The position numbers and the translations under genes are program-made. Below, in pieces: positions 1,076-42,902 of a stretch of DNA of 64,000 nucleotides. Under the pieces are notes generated by a model. The model did not search any database and was not told the origin of the DNA. It was given only the letters and a program-made list of their open reading frames with translations. Every line of letters starts with the position of its first letter. Position 1 is the first letter of the stretch. The DNA lies in NCBI GenBank assembly GCA_016213135.1, contig JACRBQ010000098.1, positions 6,221 through 70,220 of the forward strand, given 5' to 3'. The stretch is from Chloroflexota bacterium. GTDB taxonomy: Bacteria; Chloroflexota; Anaerolineae; Anaerolineales; VGOW01.

Positions 1076-1084
1076 TGTTCATTG

Positions 1085-1154
1085 CAGAATGCGGATTGCA
1101 GATTTCAGATTGGCGCTGCCGTTCCGAAATCCGCAATCTAAAATCTGAAATCTG
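1085..1154. repeat. junction palindrome built from CAGATTT/AAATCTG-type units
   Basis: CAGATTTCAGATT (1099-1111) is the reverse complement of AATCTGAAATCTG (1142-1154). GCGGATT (1091-1097) pairs with AATCCGC (1128-1134). It fills the argG-argH gap. Confidence 0.8.
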
Positions 1155-1156
1155 AA

Positions 1157-2611
1157 ATGAAACTCTGGGGCGGTCGTTTCGAGGGCAACATCGATCCGCT
1201 GGCGATGCGGCTGAACGCCTCGTTGGCCGTGGATCAGCGCCTGTGTGATGTGGACATCCGCGGCAGTGTGGCCTGGGCGCGGGCGCTGGCCCGGGCCGGG
1301 GTGATTGCCCCCGCCGAAGCCGAGACGCTGTGCGCCGGTCTGCAAAAGGTGTGGGCCGAGTTCAACGGTGGGGCGTTCCGATATGCGGCCGGCGACGAGG
1401 ACATTCACACTGCCGTGGAACGCCGTCTCGGCGAGATCGCCGGCCCGGTGGCGGGCAAGTTGCACACCGGGCGCAGCCGCAACGATCAGGTGGCGACGGA
1501 TTTCCGGCTGTGGCTGGCGGAGGCCATCGACGTGCTGGCGCTGCGCCTCGACCACTTGCAGGGCGCGCTGACGGCCAAGGCCGAGGCCGAGCTGGAAACC
1601 GTGCTGCCAGGTTACACCCACACCCAACGCGCCCAGCCCATCCTGTTCAGCCATTGGCTGCTGAGCCACTACTGGGCGCTGGAACGGGATCAGCAGCGGT
1701 TGGCGCAAACGCGCGCGCGGGTGATGACGATGCCGCTGGGATCAGCCGCACTCGCCGGCACAGGCTTCCCGATTGACCGGGCGGCGCTGGCCGCCGATCT
1801 GGGGTTTGAATCCATTGCCCCCAACAGCGTGGACGCCGTGGGCGACCGCGACTTTGCGGCGGAGTTTCTGTTCGACGCGGCGTTGGCGGGCATTCACCTG
1901 AGCCGCATGGCCGACACGCTGATTCTGTATTCCACCGCGGAGTTTGGCTTTGTGGAAATGAGCGACGCCTATTCCACCGGTTCCAGCATCATGCCGCAAA
2001 AGAAGAATCCCGACATGCTTGAGCTGGCGCGAGGCAAAGCCGGGACGCTGCTGGGAATGCTGACGGGTTTGTTGGCGGTGCTCAAGGGGCTGCCCTCGGC
2101 CTACGACAAGGATTTGCAGGAAGACAAAGCGCCGGTGTTTGCAGCATTCGACACGCTCGACGTGCTGCTGCCGGTGCTGGCCGGGACCGTTGCCACCATG
2201 CGAGTCAACCGCGAGCGGATGCGCGCGGCGGTGGATGCCAGTTTGCTGGCCACCGACCTCGCCGACCATTTGGTGAAGAAGGGCGTGCCCTTCCGGCAGG
2301 CGCATGGTTTGGTGGGGCGGGTGGTGCGCAAGGCGCTGGAGGCAGGCGTCAGTATGGATCAGTTGAGCGCTGCCCAGCTTCGCGAGGTGAGCGATCAGTT
2401 TGACGACGAGGCCGTGGCGGTGTTGAGCGGGGCGTCTCTGTTGGCTGGGCGCACCGTGGCCGGCGGCACGGGACTCGACTCGGTGCGGGCGCAGCTTGCC
2501 AAGGCGCGCGAACATGGCGCACACGCCCCTGCCTCGCCGGACGACACCCATTGGCCTGCCCGTCACATTGACCAAACACACTCGGAAGATATTATGCATC
2601 CTGCCTCGTGA
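1157..2611 (+). CDS. argH: argininosuccinate lyase
   Basis: MKLWGGRFEG... N-terminus, fumarate-lyase signature region GSSIMPQKKNPD. 484 aa with a ~25 aa C-terminal tail beyond the usual end. Confidence 0.95.
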   Translation: MKLWGGRFEGNIDPLAMRLNASLAVDQRLCDVDIRGSVAWARALARAGVIAPAEAETLCAGLQKVWAEFNGGAFRYAAGDEDIHTAVERRLGEIAGPVAGKLHTGRSRNDQVATDFRLWLAEAIDVLALRLDHLQGALTAKAEAELETVLPGYTHTQRAQPILFSHWLLSHYWALERDQQRLAQTRARVMTMPLGSAALAGTGFPIDRAALAADLGFESIAPNSVDAVGDRDFAAEFLFDAALAGIHLSRMADTLILYSTAEFGFVEMSDAYSTGSSIMPQKKNPDMLELARGKAGTLLGMLTGLLAVLKGLPSAYDKDLQEDKAPVFAAFDTLDVLLPVLAGTVATMRVNRERMRAAVDASLLATDLADHLVKKGVPFRQAHGLVGRVVRKALEAGVSMDQLSAAQLREVSDQFDDEAVAVLSGASLLAGRTVAGGTGLDSVRAQLAKAREHGAHAPASPDDTHWPARHIDQTHSEDIMHPAS

Positions 2612-3931: not shown

Positions 3932-4971
3932 CGGGCAGGCTCCGGATTGCGATATTCGGCGCATCGGGCTACACCGGCGGCGAATTGCTGCGGCTGTTGC
4001 TGTTCCATCCGCAGGTGGAGGTGGCGCAGGCCATTTCGCAGAGCTACGCCGGCGAGTTCGTCCACAGCCAGCATCCCAATTTGCGCAAGCGCACCCAGTT
4101 GCAATTCACCAGCCGCGACGCGCTCAAAGAGTGCGACGTGCTGTTTCTGGCTGTGCCGCACGGCCAGTCGCAAAAGCAGATCGATCACTTTGCAAGGTTT
4201 GCCCCGAAGATTATCGACCTTTCGGCGGACTTTCGGCTGCGCGATAGCGCGCTGTACGAGCGATGGTACGGCGAGAAGCACGCCGCGCCAGAATGGCTGG
4301 GCAAGTTCGTGTACGGCCTGCCGGAGCTTCAGCGCGAGGCTATGAAAACGGCGAGCTACGTCAGCGGGGTGGGGTGCAACGCCACTGCCGCCAACCTGGC
4401 CCTGCTGCCGTTGGTCAGGGCCGACCTGCTGCACCCCACCAAGCCGGTGGTGGTCGATCTCAAAACCGGCTCCTCCGAGGGCGGCGCGGCCGTGAACCCC
4501 GGCTCGCACCATCCCGAAAAGAGCCACTCGGTGCGGTCGTATGCGCCCACCGGCCACCGCCATACGGCGGAAGTGATTCAGGAATTGGGCCTGCACGACG
4601 TGCATCTGAGCATGACGGCAGTGGAACTGGTGCGCGGCGTGTTGGCGACGGCGCACGCCTTTCTCAAACCGGGCGTGACGGAGAAGGATTTGTGGCGGGC
4701 GTATCGGGCAGCGTACGCCGGCGAGCCGTTTGTGCGGATTGTGAAAGACAAGGGCGGCATTCACCGTATGCCGGACCCGAAGATTCTGGCCGGGTCAAAC
4801 TTTGCCGACGTGGGCTTCGAACTGGACACCGAGTCGGGGCGAGCCGTTTCGCTGGCGGCTATAGATAATCTGATGAAAGGCGCCTCCGGTTCCGCGGTGC
4901 AGGCCATGAACATCATGTGCGGCTTTGAGGAAACAGCCGGGCTGGAGTTTCCGGGGCTGCATCCGATTTGA
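3928..4971 (+). CDS. lysY: N-acetyl-gamma-glutamyl-phosphate / LysW-aminoadipyl-phosphate reductase
   Basis: [21 protein letters not shown]-binding N-terminus, catalytic GVGCNATA region. ArgC/LysY family. Confidence 0.92.
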
Positions 4972-4985
4972 GTGTGGGGGTGAGG

Positions 4986-5044
4986 GGGTATGGGAGTGTG
5001 GGAGTATGGGTGTCGTGCGCCCATACTTCCACACTCCCACACCC
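4986..5044. repeat. junction palindrome, GTGGGAG/CTCCCAC units
   Basis: Left arm GGGTATGGGAGTGTGGGAGTATGGG (4986-5010) against right arm CCCATACTTCCACACTCCCACACCC (5020-5044). 25 positions, 2 mismatches. Confidence 0.88.
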
Positions 5045-10461: not shown

Positions 10462-10986
10462 ATGATGGTTGGCAAAGTGTGGAAGTATGGCGACGGGGTG
10501 AACACGGACGTGATCTTCCCCGGCAAATACACGTATACGTTGAAGGAGCCGTCGGAGATCGCGGCCCATGCGCTGGAAGACCTCGATCCCAATTTTGCCC
10601 GCGAAGCGCGGGCGGGTGATGTGATCGTGGCCGGGCGCAACTGGGGCAACGGCAGTTCGCGCGAGCAGGCAGTGACGGCGCTGAAGTACCGAGGCATTGC
10701 GGCAGTGGTGGCAAAGTCGTTCGCGCGGATCTATTTCCGCAACGGAATCAATCAAGGCTTGCTGCTCGTCACTTGCCCCGAAGCCGTGGATGCGGCACAG
10801 GCCGGCGACATGATTGAGATCGGTTTGCCCGCCAGCCTCATCCGACTGGGCGGGCGCGAGTTCCCCTTTCCGCCGCTCTCGCCTACTGCTCTGGGCATCA
10901 TCGAGGCCGGCGGGTTGGTGCAGCACATCCGGCGCAAGTTGGGGCTGGCGAGCACTGAGGCCGTAATCGTGAGTTCGGGGGAATGA
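10462..10986 (+). CDS. hacB: homoaconitase / 3-isopropylmalate dehydratase small subunit
   Basis: MMVGKVWKYGDGVNTDVIFPGKY..., GRNWGNGSSREQA. GGGAG RBS at 10452-10456. ORF-track start 10450 trimmed to ATG 10462. Confidence 0.88.
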   Translation: MMVGKVWKYGDGVNTDVIFPGKYTYTLKEPSEIAAHALEDLDPNFAREARAGDVIVAGRNWGNGSSREQAVTALKYRGIAAVVAKSFARIYFRNGINQGLLLVTCPEAVDAAQAGDMIEIGLPASLIRLGGREFPFPPLSPTALGIIEAGGLVQHIRRKLGLASTEAVIVSSGE

Positions 10987-10989
10987 TGA

Positions 10990-11050
10990 GTGAAACGTGA
11001 TGCGTGATGCGTGAAGAATCACGTTTCACGTTTCACGTCTCACGTGTCAC
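10990..11050. repeat. junction palindrome, GTGAAAC/GTGATGC versus TCACGTT units
   Basis: GTGAAACGTGATGCGTGATGCGTGA-AGAA-TCACGTTTCACGTTTCACGTCTCAC. 25 positions with 3 mismatches and 2 G-U pairs. Confidence 0.88.
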
Positions 11051-11067
11051 GGTCGGGAGCACAACCT

Positions 11068-26025: not shown

Positions 26026-28542
26026 CTACATCTTCATGCGCTTGTTTTCGGGATCGAACAGCGGGGCGTTGCCCGCCACGGCTACCATTACCGGGTAGTG
26101 CTCGCCGAAGTATTCCACCAGCAGCTTCGTGCCCGCTTTGGCGTAGTCCGGCGGCAGGTAAGCCAACAAAATGCTCTTGCCCACCGACGGCCCGGAGCCG
26201 GCGCTGGTCACAAACGAGCGGCGGCCGTGCGCGTCTTCGATCGGCTTGCCGTCCAGTGTGAGGATGGGTTCGCGGCCCTGCGGGTAGCGCTTGATGCCGG
26301 ACTTGGAGGTGTTGTCGTCCACCGTCAGCGTGCACAGCGTGGCCGCCGGTTTGCTTTCGCGCTGCTTGAGGTAAGCCGCCTTGCCGATGAAGTCCTGCGA
26401 CTTCACCTGCGGTCGGGCCAGGCCCGCTTCCACGAGGTTGTATTCGAGTTCCAGTTCGTTGCCGTACAAGCGGTACGATTTTTCCAATCGCCCGGTAGTG
26501 CCATACACGCCGATGCCCGCCGGAACCACGCCGAATTTTTGGCCCGCGTCCCACAGGGTGTCCCACAGGCGCGCGCCCTGCTCGAACGGCATGTAGATTT
26601 CCCAGCCCAGCTCGCCCACGTACGAAATGCGCGAGGCCAGCGCGCGCACCGGGCCAAACGTCACCCAGCGGCACGTGCCATACGGAAAGCCGGCGTTGGA
26701 CATATCGTCCTCGGTGGCCGACTGCGCCAGATCGCGCGCCCGTGGCCCCCACACGCCAATGGTCGCCAGCGCGGAGGACAGGTCGCTCACCTGCGCCGAG
26801 CCGTCGGCGGGCAGATGATCGATCAGCCACTTCTTGTCGCGCATGCCGTCGAAGCCGCCATCCACCATGCGGAAGTGATCCGGCCCCAGCCGCATCACCG
26901 TCACGTCGGCTTTGATGCCCCCGGCCACATCCAGTATTTGCGTGTACACCACGCGGCCCACGGGCACGTCCATCTGGTTGGGGCACATGTACTGAATGAG
27001 GTGGAGCGCGCCCGGCCCGGTGACGTCCAGCACGGCAAAGGCCGACAGATCCACCATAGCCACCCGCTCGCGCATGGCGAGATGCTCGGCGTTGATGATG
27101 GGCGACCACCAGCGCGACTCCCACTCGGCGGCCCGGGGCAAAGCCCGGTCGCCGTACTCGGCCAGCAGTTTGTTGTTGGACTCGTACCAGTTGGGCCGCT
27201 CCCAGCCGGCGGTTTCAAAGAACACCGCGCCCAGCGCCTTCTCGCGCTCGTAGAACGGGCTGAGGCGCACGTTGCGGTTGGTGAGCCATTGCTCGCGCGG
27301 GTGCACGATGCCGTAGGTTTTGTTGAAGCCCTCGGCGCTGCGCGCCTGCACGTGGGTCTTGGTTTTGTGGTGATCGTAGAAGCGGGAAACATCGGAACCG
27401 GTGGGATCGATCTCGGAAGCGCCCGTGGTCATCCACTCCGATACGGCGCGGGCGATGCCCGGCGCTTCTTTGATCCAAATGGCGGCGGCGGACCACAGGT
27501 TCTTCACTTCGGGCGTTTCGCCCAGCAGCGGGAAGCCGTCGGGCGTGAGCGACAGCAGCCCGTTGATGGCGTAGCGGATGCCGACCTTTTCGTTGCCCAG
27601 AATGTCGGGCATGAGTTCGAGGGCCTGTTCCAGTTGCAGGTCAAAGTCCTCTTTGGTGAACGGCAGTTCCGTGGGCGAGAGCGCCGACTCTTTGATGGAC
27701 GGAATGCGATCCGGTTCCATCAAAATCGGCCGGTGAGCGTACGAGCCGACTTCCATGTCGAAGCCATGCTGCCGCTCGTACATGTTGGTGTCCATATCGC
27801 GCACAATGGGGAATTTGATCTCGCCCACCGTGTCGGCAAACTGCGGCACCGGGCCGACGCTGATCATCTGGTGTACTGCCGGGGTCAGCGGGATGGAGGC
27901 GCCCGCCATGCGCGCAATGCGCGGACTCCAAATGCCGCAGCAGACAACGACATATTCCGCGTCGATGTCGCCGCGATCAGTGCGAACAGTCTTCACGCGG
28001 CCATTGGCTACGTCCATGCCGCGGATTTCGGTGCCGGCAAACACGGTGAGCGCGCCCTGTTTCTGAGCCGTTTCGCGCATCAGCGTGCCCGCCCGCAGCG
28101 AATCCACCACACCGATGCCGGGCGTGTGGAAGCCGCTTAAAATGATCTTCTCGTTGATGAAAGGCACCAGCTTCTTCACCTCGGCGGGCGAGACGACTTC
28201 GGCGTCGATGCCCCACGATTTGGACGAGGTGATGCGGCGCTTCAGCTCCTCGACGCGCTGCGGCGTGCGGGCGACTTCGAGGCCGCCGCTCTGTGTGAAC
28301 ACGCCCAGCTCTTTATATTGCCGCACACTGTCGAGAGTGAACTTCGTCATCTCTTTGGAGTGATCAGTAAGGTAGATGAAGTTCGAAGCGTGCCCCGTCG
28401 AGCCGCCCGGGTTGGGCAGGGGGCCTTTGTCCAGCAGGACAATATCCTTCCAGCCCAGTTTGGCTAAATGGTAAGCCATGCTGTTGCCCACAATGCCTGC
28501 GCCGATGATCACAACTCTTGCGTGCCTGGGAAAAGTATCCAT
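26026..28542 (-). CDS. dimethylglycine/sarcosine dehydrogenase family (FAD DAO domain fused to GcvT aminomethyltransferase domain)
   Basis: VVIIGAGIVGNSMAYHLA dinucleotide fold, 838 aa, C-terminal GcvT-like domain. Adjacent etfBA fits an ETF-linked dehydrogenase. Confidence 0.85.
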   Translation of the reverse strand: MDTFPRHARVVIIGAGIVGNSMAYHLAKLGWKDIVLLDKGPLPNPGGSTGHASNFIYLTDHSKEMTKFTLDSVRQYKELGVFTQSGGLEVARTPQRVEELKRRITSSKSWGIDAEVVSPAEVKKLVPFINEKIILSGFHTPGIGVVDSLRAGTLMRETAQKQGALTVFAGTEIRGMDVANGRVKTVRTDRGDIDAEYVVVCCGIWSPRIARMAGASIPLTPAVHQMISVGPVPQFADTVGEIKFPIVRDMDTNMYERQHGFDMEVGSYAHRPILMEPDRIPSIKESALSPTELPFTKEDFDLQLEQALELMPDILGNEKVGIRYAINGLLSLTPDGFPLLGETPEVKNLWSAAAIWIKEAPGIARAVSEWMTTGASEIDPTGSDVSRFYDHHKTKTHVQARSAEGFNKTYGIVHPREQWLTNRNVRLSPFYEREKALGAVFFETAGWERPNWYESNNKLLAEYGDRALPRAAEWESRWWSPIINAEHLAMRERVAMVDLSAFAVLDVTGPGALHLIQYMCPNQMDVPVGRVVYTQILDVAGGIKADVTVMRLGPDHFRMVDGGFDGMRDKKWLIDHLPADGSAQVSDLSSALATIGVWGPRARDLAQSATEDDMSNAGFPYGTCRWVTFGPVRALASRISYVGELGWEIYMPFEQGARLWDTLWDAGQKFGVVPAGIGVYGTTGRLEKSYRLYGNELELEYNLVEAGLARPQVKSQDFIGKAAYLKQRESKPAATLCTLTVDDNTSKSGIKRYPQGREPILTLDGKPIEDAHGRRSFVTSAGSGPSVGKSILLAYLPPDYAKAGTKLLVEYFGEHYPVMVAVAGNAPLFDPENKRMKM

Positions 28543-28679
28543 GGAACAGACTCCTTTGATTTGAGAAAAAGTGAGAGGGGGGAGGGACAGTGTCGCACCC
28601 TCATGGCTATTCTAATCGAGGCTTTTGGCAATGACAACAGCTACATTTCTCCGCCCGTTGCGCGCCGCTGCAAAATACA

Positions 28680-28840
28680 TTGACCGATTTCCGCCCCTGT
28701 GGTAACCTGTGCCCCACCATGTGGCCGGCTATTGCATTCCCGCATCATCATTTTCCCCAAGTCTTTCCCGACCGGAGAACTGGTTAGTTACACCTACCTG
28801 CATCCCAGCCCTCCCGGTCTCCGGCGAGGGCTTTTTTATT
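28680..28840 (+). promoter_or_regulatory. candidate his leader/attenuator (promoter-like hexamers, 22-codon ORF with HHH, terminator)
   Basis: TTGACC (28680-28685), 17 nt, TAACCT (28703-28708). ATG 28719...TAG 28787 encodes MWPAIAFPHHHFPQVFPDRRTG, with CAT CAT CAT at 28743-28751. A terminator follows at 28809-28840. No SD precedes the ATG. Confidence 0.3.
28809..28840 (+). terminator. rho-independent terminator (+ strand) with no annotated + strand gene upstream
   Basis: GCCCTCCCGG-TCT-CCGGCGAGGGC followed by TTTTTTATT. Confidence 0.65.
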
Positions 28841-28876
28841 GGTCGCGGGTCGCTGGTTGTTGGCCGCTGGCCACCG
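28841..28876. repeat. left arm of a split palindrome (GGTCGCT/GGTTGTT heptamers) flanking the four-helix-bundle gene
   Basis: GGTCGCG GGTCGCT GGTTGTT GGCCGCT GGCCACC. GGTCGCTGGTTGTTGG (28849-28864) pairs with CCAACAACCAACGACC (29277-29292), 15 of 16 positions. Confidence 0.75.
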
Positions 28877-28885
28877 GAGAATGCC

Positions 28886-29266
28886 ATGGACAAAATCAAG
28901 AGCTATCGAGACCTGCAGGTCTGGCAAAAGGCCGTTGAATTGTCAGTCGCTGTGTATCGCATCACTGACAACTTCCCAAAGTCCGAAGTCTATGGTTTGA
29001 GCAACCAAATGCGGCGGGCGGCGGTTTCAATCGCCTCCAACATTGCCGAAGGTCATCGCCGTTCGAATACAGAATTTGCCCGATACCTGATGATGGCGCT
29101 TGGCTCGCTGGCTGAACTGGAAACTCAACTCGAAATCGCCCACCGTGTGAACTATCTTGCCGAAGACACTTTCAACGAACTGATGCAGGATGCCGATATT
29201 CTGGGCCGCCAACTCAACACCCTCCATCAGCGCGTAGTCACCTCCAATCGATCCGCCGGCAACTAG
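28886..29266 (+). CDS. four-helix-bundle protein (23S rRNA intervening-sequence protein / Avd-like family)
   Basis: MDKIKSYRDLQVWQKAVELSVAVYRITDNFPKSEVYGLSNQMRRAAVSIASNIAEGHRR...SLAELETQLEIA is typical of this family. About 48% GC in a sampled stretch. The 185-aa ORF was trimmed to Met60. Confidence 0.85.
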   Translation: MDKIKSYRDLQVWQKAVELSVAVYRITDNFPKSEVYGLSNQMRRAAVSIASNIAEGHRRSNTEFARYLMMALGSLAELETQLEIAHRVNYLAEDTFNELMQDADILGRQLNTLHQRVVTSNRSAGN

Positions 29267-29292
29267 CTACTAACCACCAACAACCAACGACC
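29254..29292. repeat. right arm of the split palindrome (AACCACC/AACAACC heptamers), ending at the hisG ATG
   Basis: ...CTACTAACCACCAACAACCAACGACC-ATG(hisG). Reverse complement of the left arm core. Confidence 0.75.
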
Positions 29293-30300
29293 ATGATCCG
29301 CACCGACATCCGTCTCGCCCTCCCCTCCAAAGGCCGCCTCGAAGCCGACTCGCTCGACTTCCTCGCCGCCTGTGGCTTGCGAATCTACAAGCCCAACCCG
29401 CGCCAGTATCAGGCCACCATCCCTGCCATCCCCGGCCTCGCCGTCCTCTTTCAGCGCCCCGCCGATATTGTCGTCGGCGTGCGCACCGGCAGCATCGACT
29501 TCGGCCTCGCCGGATTGGACGTGGTGGAAGAGAAACGCGGCGACGACGGCGACGTATTGATCTTGCACGATGCCCTCGGATTCGGCGCGTGCTGCCTCAC
29601 CCTGGCCGTTCCCGAAGACTGGAGCGCCACCGATCTACAAGGCGCGCGCCGCCACATTCAAACCGCCATCTCCCCCCGGCCCGTACGCGTCGCCACAAAA
29701 TACCCCACGCTCACCGCCCGCTACCTCGCCGACCACGGCCTTGCCCCATTTGAACTCATCGACGCCGAAGGCACGCTCGAAGTGGCCCCCGCCATCGGCT
29801 ACGCCGACCTCATCTCAGACCTCGTCTCCTCCGGCCAGACCTTGCGCGACAACCGCCTCGCGCCTCTTGCCGACGGAGTGGTACTGCAATCACAAGCCTG
29901 CCTCATCGCCAATCGCGCCGCGCTCAAGGCTCGCCCCGAAGCCCTCTCCATCGCCCGCGAGTTGCTCGAATTCATGGAAGCTCACCTCCGCGCCGAACAC
30001 TACTTCATGGTCACCGCCAACATGCGCGGCGACTCGCCCGAAAGCATCGCCCACCTCATGTTCACCCAGACCGAATTGGGCGGCTTGCAAGGCCCCACGA
30101 TCTCGCCCGTCGTGCCGCGCGCGCCCGGCGACACGCGCTGGTTTGCCGTCAACATCGTCGTGCGCAAAGACCACATCTCCAGCGCCGTCACCCAACTGCG
30201 TTCCATCGGCGGCAGCGGCGTCATCGTCTCGCCCGTCACCTACATTTTTGAAGAAGAGCCGCAGCGATACAAAGCCATGCTGGATGCCCTGTCATGCTAA
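29293..30300 (+). CDS. hisG: ATP phosphoribosyltransferase, long form with C-terminal regulatory domain
   Basis: MIRTDIRLALPSKGRL..., DLVSSGQTLRDN, and a C-terminal HisG_C-like region (FMVTANM...). 335 aa. Confidence 0.9.
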   Translation: MIRTDIRLALPSKGRLEADSLDFLAACGLRIYKPNPRQYQATIPAIPGLAVLFQRPADIVVGVRTGSIDFGLAGLDVVEEKRGDDGDVLILHDALGFGACCLTLAVPEDWSATDLQGARRHIQTAISPRPVRVATKYPTLTARYLADHGLAPFELIDAEGTLEVAPAIGYADLISDLVSSGQTLRDNRLAPLADGVVLQSQACLIANRAALKARPEALSIARELLEFMEAHLRAEHYFMVTANMRGDSPESIAHLMFTQTELGGLQGPTISPVVPRAPGDTRWFAVNIVVRKDHISSAVTQLRSIGGSGVIVSPVTYIFEEEPQRYKAMLDALSC

Positions 30301-31589: not shown

Positions 31590-32674
31590 ACATTCAACCC
31601 CTCATCCGTCCCGAACTGCTCACGATGGAGCCGTACACGCCCATTGTGCCTTTCGACGTGCTTTCCGCCCGGTTGGGCCGCGCCCCCGCCGACATTATCA
31701 AACTCGACGCCAACGAGAACCCTTACGGCCCCTCGCCCAGAGCACGCGCCGCCCTTGCCTCGCTGCCGTTCCCGCACATTTACCCCGATCCCGAAAGCAC
31801 CGCGCTCCGCGCCGCGCTCGCCCGCGACCTCGGCCTGCCCGCGCAAAACATCCTCGCCGGTTCCGGCGCGGACGAACTGATCGACCTCATCCTGCGCCTC
31901 TTCATTTCTCCCGGCGATGCTGTGATTGATTGCCCGCCCACCTTTGGCATGTACTCCTTCGACACCGCCGTCAACGCCGGGCAACTCCTCACCGTCCCCC
32001 GCCGCGCCGACTTTTCCGTTGACGTGGCCGCCATCGAAAACCTCATTACTCATCACTCAAAACTCAAAACGCTGTTTCTTGCCTCGCCCAACAACCCCGA
32101 TGGCGGCCTGCTCGCCGACGCCGACCTGCGCCGCCTGCTCGACCTGCCGTTGGCGGTGGTGCTGGACGAAGCCTACATCGAATTCTCCGGCATGCCCGGC
32201 CACGCCGCGTGGGTTACGGAGCGCGACAACCTTATTGTCCTGCGCACCTTCAGCAAGCGCGCCGGGTTGGCCGGGCTGCGGGTGGGCTACGGCATATTCC
32301 CTTCCGCGCTCATGCCGCACCTGTGGAAGATCAAACAACCGTACAACGTTTCCGTGGCTGCCACCGCCGCCGCGCTCGCCTCGCTGGACGATCCGGGTTA
32401 CATGGGGCAGGTGGTGGCCGCGCTGGTGGCCGAGCGCAACCGCATGGCCGAGGCGCTGAGTGAGGTGCCGTTTGTGCGCGTCTATCCTTCGCACGCCAAC
32501 TTCGTCCTGTGTCGCATCGTAGGCCGCGACGCAAAGGAACTCAAATTCGAACTCGAACAGCGAGGCATTCTCGTGCGCTACTTCAACAAGCCCGGCCTCA
32601 CCGATTGCATTCGCATTTCGGCCGGCAAGCCGGAGCAGACCGATACCCTGGTGCAAGCGCTGAAGTCCGTGTAA
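31586..32674 (+). CDS. hisC: histidinol-phosphate aminotransferase
   Basis: IKLDANENPYGPSP, TFSKRAGLAGLRVGY (PLP lysine). ATGA overlap with hisD. Confidence 0.93.
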   Translation: MNIQPLIRPELLTMEPYTPIVPFDVLSARLGRAPADIIKLDANENPYGPSPRARAALASLPFPHIYPDPESTALRAALARDLGLPAQNILAGSGADELIDLILRLFISPGDAVIDCPPTFGMYSFDTAVNAGQLLTVPRRADFSVDVAAIENLITHHSKLKTLFLASPNNPDGGLLADADLRRLLDLPLAVVLDEAYIEFSGMPGHAAWVTERDNLIVLRTFSKRAGLAGLRVGYGIFPSALMPHLWKIKQPYNVSVAATAAALASLDDPGYMGQVVAALVAERNRMAEALSEVPFVRVYPSHANFVLCRIVGRDAKELKFELEQRGILVRYFNKPGLTDCIRISAGKPEQTDTLVQALKSV

Positions 32675-32676
32675 TT

Positions 32677-32742
32677 TCTGATTGTTGATTGCTGATTCTT
32701 GATTGAGTTCAAATCAGCAATCAGCAATCAGCAATCAACAAT
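32677..32742. repeat. junction palindrome, ATTGCTG/CAGCAAT units
   Basis: TCTGATTGTTGATTGCTGATTCTTGATTGAG-TTC-AAATCAGCAATCAGCAATCAGCAATCAACAAT. The right arm runs into the hisB ATG. Confidence 0.85.
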
Positions 32743-33328
32743 GAGAATATCAACCATCCACCGCCACACCAATGAGACCGACATCACGCTCACGCTGTCG
32801 CTCGACGGCTCGGGCAAGCACGACATTCAGACGGGCGTGGGCTTCCTCGATCATTTGCTGACGCACATTGCCGTGCACGGGCTGTTCGATCTCACCGTGC
32901 AGGCCGTGGGTGACCTGCACGTTGATACGCACCACACCATCGAGGACACGGCGCTGGCGCTGGGGCAGGCGTTCGATGAGGCTCTCGGCGACCGCAGCGG
33001 CATTGTGCGTATGGGGTCGGCCTACGTGCCGATGGACGAGTCGCTGGCGTTTGTGGCGGTGGACTTTTCGGGGCGGCCGTGCGCGGTGACGCAGGGGCAA
33101 TGGCACGGGCCGGTGATCGGGCAAGTGCCAACGACCCTGATTCCGCACTTCATCGAATCGTTCGCCGCGACTGCCCGGGCCAACGTTCACGCCAATGTGC
33201 TGTATGGCCGCGACGATCACCATCAGGCCGAAGCGTTGTTCAAAGCCCTGGGCCGCACGCTCGATGCGGCGACGATGATTGACCCTCGCCGGGCGGGAAA
33301 CGTGCCTTCGACAAAGGGGAGCCTGTGA
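32741..33328 (+). CDS. hisB: imidazoleglycerol-phosphate dehydratase (monofunctional, no phosphatase domain)
   Basis: [16 protein letters not shown]...GFLDHLL...HHTIED...[12 protein letters not shown]. 195 aa from Met15 of the ORF. Confidence 0.93.
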
Positions 33329-33384
33329 AGTGAAACGTGAAACGTGATTCGTCACGTATCACGCATTACGTGTTACGCATCACG
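33325..33384. repeat. junction palindrome, GTGAAAC/TCACG units
   Basis: GTGAAGTGAAACGTGAAACGTGA-TTC-GTCACGTATCACGCATTACGTGTTACGCATCACG (imperfect). Confidence 0.8.
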
Positions 33385-34775: not shown

Positions 34776-35639
34776 ATGCTTGCCAAACGCCTCATCCCCT
34801 GCCTCGATGTCAAAGATGGCCGCGTCGTCAAAGGCGTCCACTTCGTGAGCCTGCGCGACGCGGGCGACCCGGTGGAACAGGCGCACATTTACGACGCCGA
34901 GGGCGCGGACGAATTGGTGTTTCTAGACATCTCTGCCACGCCCGATGGTCGCGCCACTGTGGCTCCCATGGTGCGCCGTGTGGCCGACGATGTGTTTCTG
35001 CCGCTTACCGTGGGCGGCGGCATCCGCACCGTGGACGACATGCGCGCCATCCTGCTGGCCGGGGCCGACAAAGTGAGCATCAATTCGGCGGCGGTCAAAA
35101 CGCCCGAACTGATTTCCGCCGGCGCGGAACGGTTCGGCAGCCAGTGTGTGGTCGTCGCCATTGATGCGAAGCGAGTTGCAATGAACAATGAGACGATGAA
35201 CAATGAACAATGGGCCGACGGCCAGCCGCCAGCTACCAACAACCAGTCACAAGCCACCAATCCCCAGCCACCCACTACCAACCACCAGCCCCGCTGGGAA
35301 GTCTACGTTTCCGGCGGTCGCACGCCCACCGGATTGGACGCGCTCGAATGGGCGGCGCGGGTGGTGGAGCTGGGCGCGGGCGAAATTTTGCTCACCAGCA
35401 TTGACGCCGACGGGACAAAAAACGGGTATGATTTGGCACTCACGCGTGCCGTGGCCGAGATCGTTCCGGTGCCGGTGATTGCCAGCGGGGGGGCGGGGTC
35501 ACTGGCGCATTTTGCGGAAGTGCTCACCGAGGGCCGCGCCGACGCCGCGCTGGCCGCCTCGCTCTTTCACGACAAGCTGCTGTCCATTGGCGAGGTGAAA
35601 TCCTATCTGGCAGCGCAGGGAGTTGTAGTGCGGCGATAG
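34776..35639 (+). CDS. hisF: imidazole glycerol phosphate synthase cyclase subunit, with a low-complexity insertion of about 35 aa
   Basis: [20 protein letters not shown]..., ...[10 protein letters not shown][[38 protein letters not shown]][10 protein letters not shown]..., [22 protein letters not shown]. Confidence 0.93.
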
Positions 35640-42838: not shown

Positions 42839-42850
42839 GTTTGGGAATAC

Positions 42851-42890
42851 GGGTGTGTGGGAGTGCGGGAGAGTCCACTCCCACACACCC
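42851..42890. repeat. junction palindrome, GTGGGAG/CTCCCAC units, perfect 15-bp arms
   Basis: GGGTGTGTGGGAGTG (42851-42865) against CACTCCCACACACCC (42876-42890). Confidence 0.9.
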
Positions 42891-42902
42891 CTACCCCCAC
42901 AC

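Follow-up and report, generated by a model that had tools for sequence, protein, structure and literature searches.

In a 64,000-nucleotide stretch of the genome of a Chloroflexota bacterium (contig JACRBQ010000098.1; the whole stretch is referred to here as the window), hisG, the first gene of the histidine biosynthesis operon, is preceded by a cassette of 452 nt in total, at positions 28841 to 29292, which fills the whole gap from the T run of the upstream attenuator to the hisG start codon. The cassette consists of a gene for a four-helix-bundle (4HB) protein located between two inverted arrays of degenerate heptamers, with all features on the + strand. The left array is G/T-rich and contains five units (GGTCGCG GGTCGCT GGTTGTT GGCCGCT GGCCACC, positions 28841 to 28875). 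It is followed by a Shine-Dalgarno sequence, GGAG, recognized by sequence reading (28876 to 28879), and by the 4HB gene (28886 to 29266), which encodes 126 aa and is the one real open reading frame (ORF) between the arms. The right array is C/A-rich (CTACTAA CCACCAA CAACCAA CGACC, 29267 to 29292) and abuts the hisG start codon, the last base of the arm being 29292 and the hisG ATG beginning at 29293. Analysis of this array with Tandem Repeats Finder (TRF) indicated a period of 7 and 3.1 copies at 29272 to 29293. A repeat search detected, within the arrays, two inverted arms of 16 nt at 28848 to 28863 (GGTCGCTGGTTGTTGG) and 29277 to 29292 (CCAACAACCAACGACC), which are complementary at 15 of 16 positions (94%) and are 413 nt apart. 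An earlier note on this DNA had reported reverse-complementary arms (15 of 16), both lying in heptamer arrays, a single ORF within the intervening 410 nt or so and a right arm ending at the hisG ATG. Each of these points was recovered, with the correction that the left arm had been placed one base off, at 28849 to 28864. The gene was rightly described as being of lower GC content; the sampled figure of about 48% did not stand, as the measured value was 52.8%, compared to 63.8% for the whole window.

The encoded protein had been attributed to the 4HB family associated with intervening sequences (IVSs) of rRNA, and profile searches agreed with this attribution. Matches were obtained to PF05635 (E = 4.9e-39; 133.3 bits against a cutoff of 33.8) and to TIGR02436 (125.9 bits against a cutoff of 24). 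Residues 7 to 113 were matched by PDB entry 2GSC (E = 1.9e-23), the Xanthomonas protein XCC0516, a pentameric 4HB protein of solved structure. An RxxxSxxxNxxE motif was found in the protein (RRAAVSIASNIAE) and is part of the published consensus GxxRxxxSxxxNxxE (PMC3936711). PADLOC gave no match for the protein, and no close relative was found in the viral contigs that were scanned. Across 15 loci, the GC content of the 4HB gene was in every case below that of the surroundings, by 2 to 13 points, and its composition appears foreign-like.

A leader-peptide attenuator occupies the 340 nt that separate the cassette from a divergent DAO/GCV_T oxidase gene. A putative his operon promoter (TTGACC-N17-TAACCT, 28680 to 28708) was recognized by sequence reading, its position and -35 element matching those in the leaders of relatives (TTGAC..N17..TATTCT). 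Downstream of it are a leader peptide ORF of 22 codons (MWPAIAFPHHHFPQVFPDRRTG, 28719 to 28787), with three consecutive CAT codons at 28743 to 28751, and a terminator hairpin (GCCCTCCCGG-TCT-CCGGCGAGGGC plus T6, 28808 to 28837) whose stem is conserved in seven relatives. The leader segment CCGGAGA (28772 to 28778) is complementary to part of this hairpin and covaries with the 5' half of the terminator, the pairs being CCGGAG/CTCCCGG here and CCGAGAG/CTCTCGG in relatives. The region thus combines a His-codon ORF, alternative antiterminator and terminator hairpins and a T run directly upstream of the operon, and a leader ORF with three or four His codons was present at the same place, with a conserved terminator, in related hisG loci of Anaerolineae and Thermoflexales. 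Searches against Rfam, at the gathering threshold for the whole window and at E ≤ 10 for positions 28500 to 29350, detected no riboswitch, T-box or His_leader (the subthreshold matches in the latter region were to terminator-like small RNAs only), indicating that this attenuator falls outside the curated enterobacterial His_leader family. A consensus scan for promoters and terminators called no + strand promoter and also missed the bulged attenuator hairpin and the putative his promoter. The 4HB gene has the orientation of the operon, and no promoter-like site was detected between the terminator and this gene; its transcription is therefore expected to occur exclusively by read-through. The hisG gene, which encodes ATP phosphoribosyltransferase (29293 to 30300), has no Shine-Dalgarno sequence of its own, and the order of the operon is hisG-hisD-hisC-hisB-hisH...hisF-hisI.

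Pairing of the two flanks was compared to that of shuffled sequences. The best ungapped inverted-repeat score between the window flanks was 13, whereas 300 shuffles averaged 6.8 and reached 11 at most. At related loci, flank pairing exceeded that of shuffles with z values of -2 to -7, and the inverted-repeat score was higher than in all 300 shuffles for most loci. Minimum free energy and centroid folds of positions 28836 to 29300 both contained a long-range closing stem of about 29 bp with bulges, and the overall fold energy of this segment was ordinary for its composition (z = -0.86). All 14 related cassettes, ranging from 437 to 661 nt, folded left flank to right flank over 10 to 88 bp. Cross-locus matrices indicated that arms from different 4HB loci paired about as well as the arms of one locus, by which a locus-specific complementarity of the arms was rejected. 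Hence, the 15-of-16 match reflects two arrays of the same family in opposite orientation and not a uniquely matched palindrome.

The segment between the attenuator and hisG was then compared among 160 hisG loci of Anaerolineae, Thermoflexales and similar lineages collected by HisG-based scans, in which the best HisG identity was 79%. The scan of a genome collection detected no close relative of the source organism (best HisG identity, 69%), and the 4HB gene was absent from the 838 kb surrounding the 80 hisG loci of that scan. Nearly all of the 160 loci lacked a 4HB gene in this slot, with the gene being present in scattered lineages only. Among the closest loci, the slot was empty in three (L081, L083 and L086), with the terminator followed by ATTTCT-ATG. 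A gene-less palindrome of tandem heptamers occupied the slot in two others, with TTAAAGA units in L082 and AGTAATT units in L084, and L098 contained a short array. Overall, clear period-7 arrays or palindromes were detected in 7 of the 148 hisG loci with enough upstream DNA, and the unit was different in each. The 4HB cassette itself was found in the window and in L085, L161 and L185 to L189; in L085 the gene again lay between inverted arrays. L161 is a 525-bp groundwater-metagenome contig covering the same locus as the window, with a 94%-identical 4HB protein (homolog P0001) and a left array that is one heptamer shorter. The five contigs L185 to L189 have a homolog, P0031, that is 66% identical to the protein of the window. 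A HisG tree placed the three 4HB-bearing lineages at scattered positions among the empty and palindrome-bearing ones. These results indicated that the his slot is a hypervariable cassette site, which is empty, holds a gene-less palindrome or holds a 4HB cassette. As a separate observation, L102 has a gene-less palindrome about 100 nt upstream of hisG with units resembling those of the 4HB arms (ACCAATG ACCAACG ... GTCGTTG GTCGTTC) and the opposite polarity, with the C/A-rich arm first; this arm order is the one expected at the junction of a circularized cassette or between two tandem cassettes.

The genomic locations of seven further homologs, with 56 to 69% identity to the 4HB protein of the window, were also examined. 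These genes lie between short spacers inside biosynthetic operons. In all nine Chloroflexota loci, which represent five kinds of junction (his, carA-carB, argG, OTCase and trpG-like), inverted arrays bracket the 4HB gene, which has the orientation of the operon. The arrangements are carA-4HB-carB in three lineages, argG-4HB-acetyltransferase/argG fusion in two lineages, OTCase-4HB-OTCase, trpG-like amidotransferase-4HB-M16 peptidase and his leader-4HB-hisG. Several of these junction types were seen in five to eight independent assemblies and are not, therefore, assembly artefacts. Every related cassette has a strong Shine-Dalgarno sequence at a like spacing, a G/T-rich heptamer array upstream of the gene and a C/A-rich array downstream, with the latter often extending from the last 4HB codons to the start codon of the next gene. 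An array was visible by eye on 18 of 18 flanks of the nine loci, and low-threshold TRF analysis called 14 of the 18; elsewhere, about 0.2 to 1 array per kb was detected. The expected bracketing of other 4HB genes by inverted arrays therefore held for all fetched copies of the same subfamily in relatives and, as described below, for most but not all copies in other phyla. A strong Shine-Dalgarno sequence is a feature of all of these 4HB genes, unlike hisG and several other genes 3' of the cassettes, which have none and whose start codons are reached by the C/A-rich right arm.

A single unit family, T[GA]G[CT]N[GA][CT], was common to the arms of eight of the nine Chloroflexota loci, the exception being the distant member L178, which has arms of GGGATTA units. 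A search for at least three consecutive units of this family gave 61 matches in 1.39 Mb. Nearly all of these were on the left flanks (+ strand) or right flanks (- strand) of 4HB genes, and only 4 of the 61 fell within the approximately 1.27 Mb of 4HB-less hisG loci. A covariation of protein subfamily with heptamer unit, as for a protein that recognizes its own arms, was not supported, since the L178 protein is as close as the others and its arms consist of GGGATTA units. In a tree of the 4HB proteins, the car and argG copies grouped by site, and the his copy of L185 was not placed with those of the window and L085; distances in this tree were large. Values of dN/dS were 0.03 to 0.04 among the car copies and 0.09 between the argG copies, indicating that the 4HB protein is functional in general. 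Comparison of the window gene (28886 to 29266) with that of L161 (119 to 499) detected eight nonsynonymous and three synonymous changes and a dN/dS of about 0.84, a value that is based on 11 changes only.

The earlier note had proposed insertion of the gene into the loop of a palindrome that was already present, which would make the palindromes landing pads and the 4HB gene a mobile unit. This proposal was consistent with the presence of gene-less heptamer palindromes in the slot (L082 and L084; 7 of 148 hisG loci), with the many such palindromes at operon junctions in the window and with a few gene-less arrays of the 4HB-arm family (L162, 2322 to 2386; window, 35218 to 35245; L102) that could be targets by arm homology. 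The nearest pair of filled and unfilled sites argued against it. L082 and L185/L186 have about 95% identity through the leader and hisG (hisG dS of 0.20), and the segment from the T run to the ATG is a 68-nt TTAAAGA palindrome in the former and a 4HB cassette of about 460 nt in the latter. The arms of this cassette (TAGCGAC TGGCTGT ... / ... CCGCCAG CCGCCAA) are unrelated to those of the L082 palindrome. Moreover, the arms at five junction types in different genomes belong to a single unit family with hardly any other occurrences, the resident palindromes of the his slot all differ in unit, and L081, L083 and L086 are empty sites without any hairpin. The predicted empty sites with an intact hairpin do occur in relatives (L082 and L084), but the hairpin is a different one and the other three sites hold nothing. 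Because the L082 and L185 arms are unrelated and the arm unit family is nearly absent from 4HB-less loci, we concluded that the arms move together with the gene, which did not simply enter the palindrome of its sister locus. What is gained and lost thus appears to be the gene plus its arms, and the slot appears to be a cassette site rather than a landing-pad hairpin; the earlier proposal is partly supported, and its landing-pad element is weakened. Insertion of the gene alone into a resident palindrome, with host-derived arms, is in our view unlikely. Given the few gene-less arrays of the same unit family, copying into such palindromes guided by arm homology may nevertheless occur.

The occurrence of the layout outside the Chloroflexota was examined by a tblastn search of plasmids, which gave 36 records, mostly cyanobacterial. 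Inverted heptamer arrays flanked the 4HB gene in Nostoc edaphicum (GTAGGGA x8 / TCCCTAC x5; between nrdB and nrdA, on the opposite strand), in Anabaena sp. 90 (GGTGACA / TGTCACC; between cas6 and cas4), in Picosynechococcus (GGAGATA / TATCTCC; between cmr2 and cmr3), in Stanieria (GGCAGAA / TTCTGCC) and in Gemmatirosa (GGGCAGGA / TCCTGCCC). A 4HB gene of Azospirillum lipoferum was located inside a 23S rRNA gene (RF02541, 2150 bits) and is thus part of a true IVS, which has the same array-gene-array organization (CAGAGGA CGGATGA CAGAGGA CGGAGGA ... CCGTCCT CTGTCTT CTGTCAT CCGTCTT), with GACAGAG/GACGGAG arrays before the gene and CTGTCTT arrays after it. The IVS of Coxiella is 428 to 444 nt long, has a 28-bp terminal stem, is excised by RNase III and contains an S23p (PF05635) ORF, upstream of which are two or three tandem GACAGAT heptamers whose number varies between strains (PMC4990558).

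These comparisons bore out the likeness to the layout of rRNA IVSs that had been suggested for the window element. As in the ORF-bearing 23S rRNA IVSs of Coxiella burnetii, Leptospira and Azospirillum lipoferum, the length is about 430 to 450 nt, the complementary ends form a closing stem, and a PF05635 ORF in the loop is flanked by tandem heptamers; copy-number variation between strains and a patchy distribution are also shared. The host RNA is different, being an mRNA leader or operon junction here and not helix 25 or 45 of 23S rRNA, and no rRNA was present in the window. Apart from this host RNA, the window element has the IVS layout in every respect that was tested. A further difference is that the 4HB gene has a strong Shine-Dalgarno sequence, whereas the Coxiella copy is apparently untranslated; RNase III excision is known for Coxiella. 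Short ORF-less rRNA IVSs are found in Salmonella, Campylobacter and others, and they relate to ORF-bearing IVSs as gene-less palindromes relate to 4HB cassettes, each being a hairpin without cargo at the same kind of site. This likeness is one of layout; the gene-less palindromes here consist of locus-specific heptamer units and lie between genes.

On the observed anatomy, slot polymorphism, arm-family specificity and cross-phylum layout, we consider it probable that the element is an IVS-type cassette, comprising a PF05635 gene and its own inverted heptamer arrays, which resides in mRNA within a variable slot of the his leader and is closed by a long-range stem. The 4HB gene would be co-transcribed with hisG by read-through of the His-codon attenuator. 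In the transcript, the arms are predicted to pair, closing a gene-bearing loop of about 410 nt and bringing the attenuator and the hisG start side by side. By analogy with the 23S rRNA IVSs, this stem may render the insertion tolerable to the host transcript and is a plausible substrate for RNase III; cut at the stem, the transcript would give rise to an independent 4HB mRNA and to a hisG mRNA whose leader is very short. In being a promoterless single-ORF unit, on the operon strand of a recurrent slot, with imperfect inverted repeats and gene-less hairpin counterparts, the cassette resembles integron cassettes and MITE-like elements. It differs from integron cassettes in having repeats on both sides of the ORF and biosynthetic operons as hosts, and from MITE-like elements in that the arms are degenerate tandem arrays and not unique ends.

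Several results weigh against this interpretation. No target-site duplication was detected at the borders in comparisons of filled and empty sites, and no transposase was found in or next to the cassettes of the Chloroflexota loci; in the absence of such a duplication and of an associated recombinase or transposase, mobility is deduced from the patchy distribution only, and homologous recombination acting on old polymorphisms could also account for the slot alleles. Mismatches between the arms showed no excess of G-U-compatible over A-C changes, which had been sought as a sign of selection at the RNA level, and two substitutions in the right arm of L161 break pairs without compensation. Exact pairing is therefore apparently not tightly selected, and the complementarity of the arms may be a by-product of array identity. 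Co-transcription, formation of the stem in vivo and RNase III cleavage are all inferred. The similarity of nonsynonymous and synonymous rates between the window and L161 may indicate that the window copy is decaying or under relaxed constraint, as has been proposed for the Coxiella IVS ORF. Bracketing was also imperfect among the plasmid copies: the cas6-cas4 junction of a Pseudanabaena galeata plasmid (L193) has direct arrays, with about 14 copies of AAAGCTA upstream and about 10 of AAAGCCA downstream, and two plasmid copies of Nostoc PCC 7120 lack clear inverted arms. Finally, a second 4HB copy was not detected in the 64-kb window by tblastn, and the comparison thus covers copies from other genomes.

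It could be argued that nothing in this region is mobile, with the 4HB gene being an ordinary resident gene, the arrays a generic filler of junctions and the complementarity a product of G/T- and C/A-rich composition. Period-7 arrays are indeed common, the 64-kb window having about 30 of them, located at many junctions and, within hisF, even in frame; the equality of cross-locus and within-locus arm pairing is expected from this explanation, and vertical inheritance with strong purifying selection seems to apply to the car-associated copies. Set against this are the restriction of the gene at the his slot to scattered lineages (almost all of the 160 hisG loci lack it), the arrays on 18 of 18 flanks of nine loci, their fixed polarity (G/T-rich on the left and C/A-rich on the right) and specific unit family, the like architecture across phyla and in a true rRNA IVS, and a GC content consistently under that of the surroundings. 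We regard a wholly resident origin as quite improbable.

Equally doubtful is a domesticated operon component, in which the 4HB protein would serve biosynthesis operons, for example by acting on transcripts during starvation, and the arms would be processing or translation-coupling signals of benefit to the host. Such a role would suit the location of nine of nine Chloroflexota copies, all in operon orientation, within his, arg, car/pyr or trp-type operons, the position of the window copy behind a His attenuator, from which it would be made only upon His limitation, the dN/dS of 0.03 to 0.09 in the car and argG copies and the way in which the C/A-rich right arm abuts the start codons of downstream genes that have no Shine-Dalgarno sequence. 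It is difficult to reconcile with the settings of the cassette in other phyla, where it was found within 23S rRNA, in cas operons, beside transposases and, on the opposite strand, at the nrdB-nrdA junction. The closest relatives, moreover, do without a 4HB gene at the his slot, and the comparison between the window and L161 gave no clear sign of constraint. An identity of the protein with Avd, the accessory protein of diversity-generating retroelements (DGRs), is scarcely credible, since, despite weak similarity (PF22296 bAvd, 30.7 bits; NF033474, 35.2 bits), the scores are below the curated cutoffs of 40 and 80, respectively, no template/variable-type (TR/VR) direct repeat surrounds the gene, and the neighbors are the DAO/GCV_T oxidase gene and hisG-hisD-hisC with no adjacent reverse transcriptase, the remainder of the window not having been scanned exhaustively for one. 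The protein shares with the Avd of Bordetella phage BPP-1 the four-helix-bundle superfamily and a small basic character, and PDB 2GSC is a homopentamer like Avd; its sub-cutoff scores and operon-junction context set it apart.

If the IVS-type cassette is the correct interpretation, the IVS layout of inverted heptamer arrays, closing stem and 4HB ORF would constitute a portable cassette. Such cassettes would have colonized mRNA operon junctions in Chloroflexota, Cyanobacteriota and Gemmatimonadota, in addition to the true 23S rRNA IVSs of Azospirillum (Alphaproteobacteria), with its array-gene-array order, and Coxiella (Gammaproteobacteria), with its terminal stem and tandem heptamers. The finding of gene-plus-arms units at operon junctions in several phyla indicates that these elements are not confined to rRNA. 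To our knowledge, neither a function nor a mechanism of mobility has been assigned to rRNA IVSs and their four-helix ORFs in the roughly three decades since they became known, and the natural series of empty slot, gene-less palindrome and 4HB cassette would make this old question testable. The PF05635 family and rRNA IVSs are thus already known, and what appears to be new is that PF05635 genes occur at operon junctions of mRNAs in the form of cassettes with inverted heptamer arrays. We found no account of such cassettes in the searchable literature, and a link between PF05635 and heptamer arrays was encountered only in the Coxiella IVS paper, the other mentions of the family being a note on cas loci and surveys of DGRs. 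PF05635 (23S_rRNA_IVP) genes in cas loci have been noted before and read as possible cas partners. The present results advise caution in this respect, and PF05635 genes inside cas or biosynthetic operons should not be read as functional partners of those operons.

A broader and rather unlikely extension is that insertions of heptamer-array hairpins form one cross-phylum world, comprising gene-bearing 4HB cassettes, ORF-less rRNA IVSs, cyanobacterial short tandemly repeated repetitive (STRR) sequences and the junction palindromes of Chloroflexota, in which an Avd-like protein helps to make, spread or maintain the arrays. This protein might, for example, bind nucleic acids and serve a polymerase or reverse transcriptase as a cofactor in trans, and the loops of structured RNAs and operon junctions would be a shared niche. 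Heptanucleotide STRRs were reportedly described by Mazel et al. in 1990 as repeats only, with no link to 4HB genes or inverted bracketing. Like the arrays studied here, they are intergenic tandem heptamers, and in cyanobacterial plasmids such arrays bracket PF05635 genes; the taxon here, by contrast, is Chloroflexota. Were this extension true, rRNA IVSs, STRRs and "orphan" Avd homologs would be a single phenomenon. Non-DGR homologs of Avd are among the commoner unexplained small proteins of bacteria.

Gene-less palindromes of tandem 7- or 8-mers were present at six further junctions of the window (1081 to 1158, 4970 to 5044, 10984 to 11051, 32674 to 32747, 33330 to 33384 and 42839 to 42902). 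Each has its own unit and a dG of -24 to -60 kcal/mol, and two are inside the his operon, at hisC|hisB and hisB|hisH. In all six, the G-rich arm precedes the C-rich arm, and this order holds whichever strand is read. Some unit types recur in the window, with GGGAGTGT at 4970, 10436 and 42839 and ACTCAAA at 32055, 39729 and 50355. Arrays were also detected within coding sequences. Inside hisF (ORF, 34776 to 35639), two in-frame heptamer arrays at 35179 to 35285, (CAATGAA)n followed by (CCAGCNA)n, add about 40 low-complexity residues between the conserved DAKR and WEVY, the second array being of the 4HB-arm unit family. Beside carA-4HB-carB cassettes, a palindrome of this family is in frame inside carA of L162 (2322 to 2386), at the linker that joins the two carA domains, and carB of L163 has one unpaired in-frame array (4743 to 4770). 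In the arg operon of L177 (655 to 1492) and L183 (652 to 1489), a nucleotidyltransferase/HepT-like toxin-antitoxin pair is located one junction upstream of the 4HB cassette, indicating that other small selfish modules also use such operon junctions.

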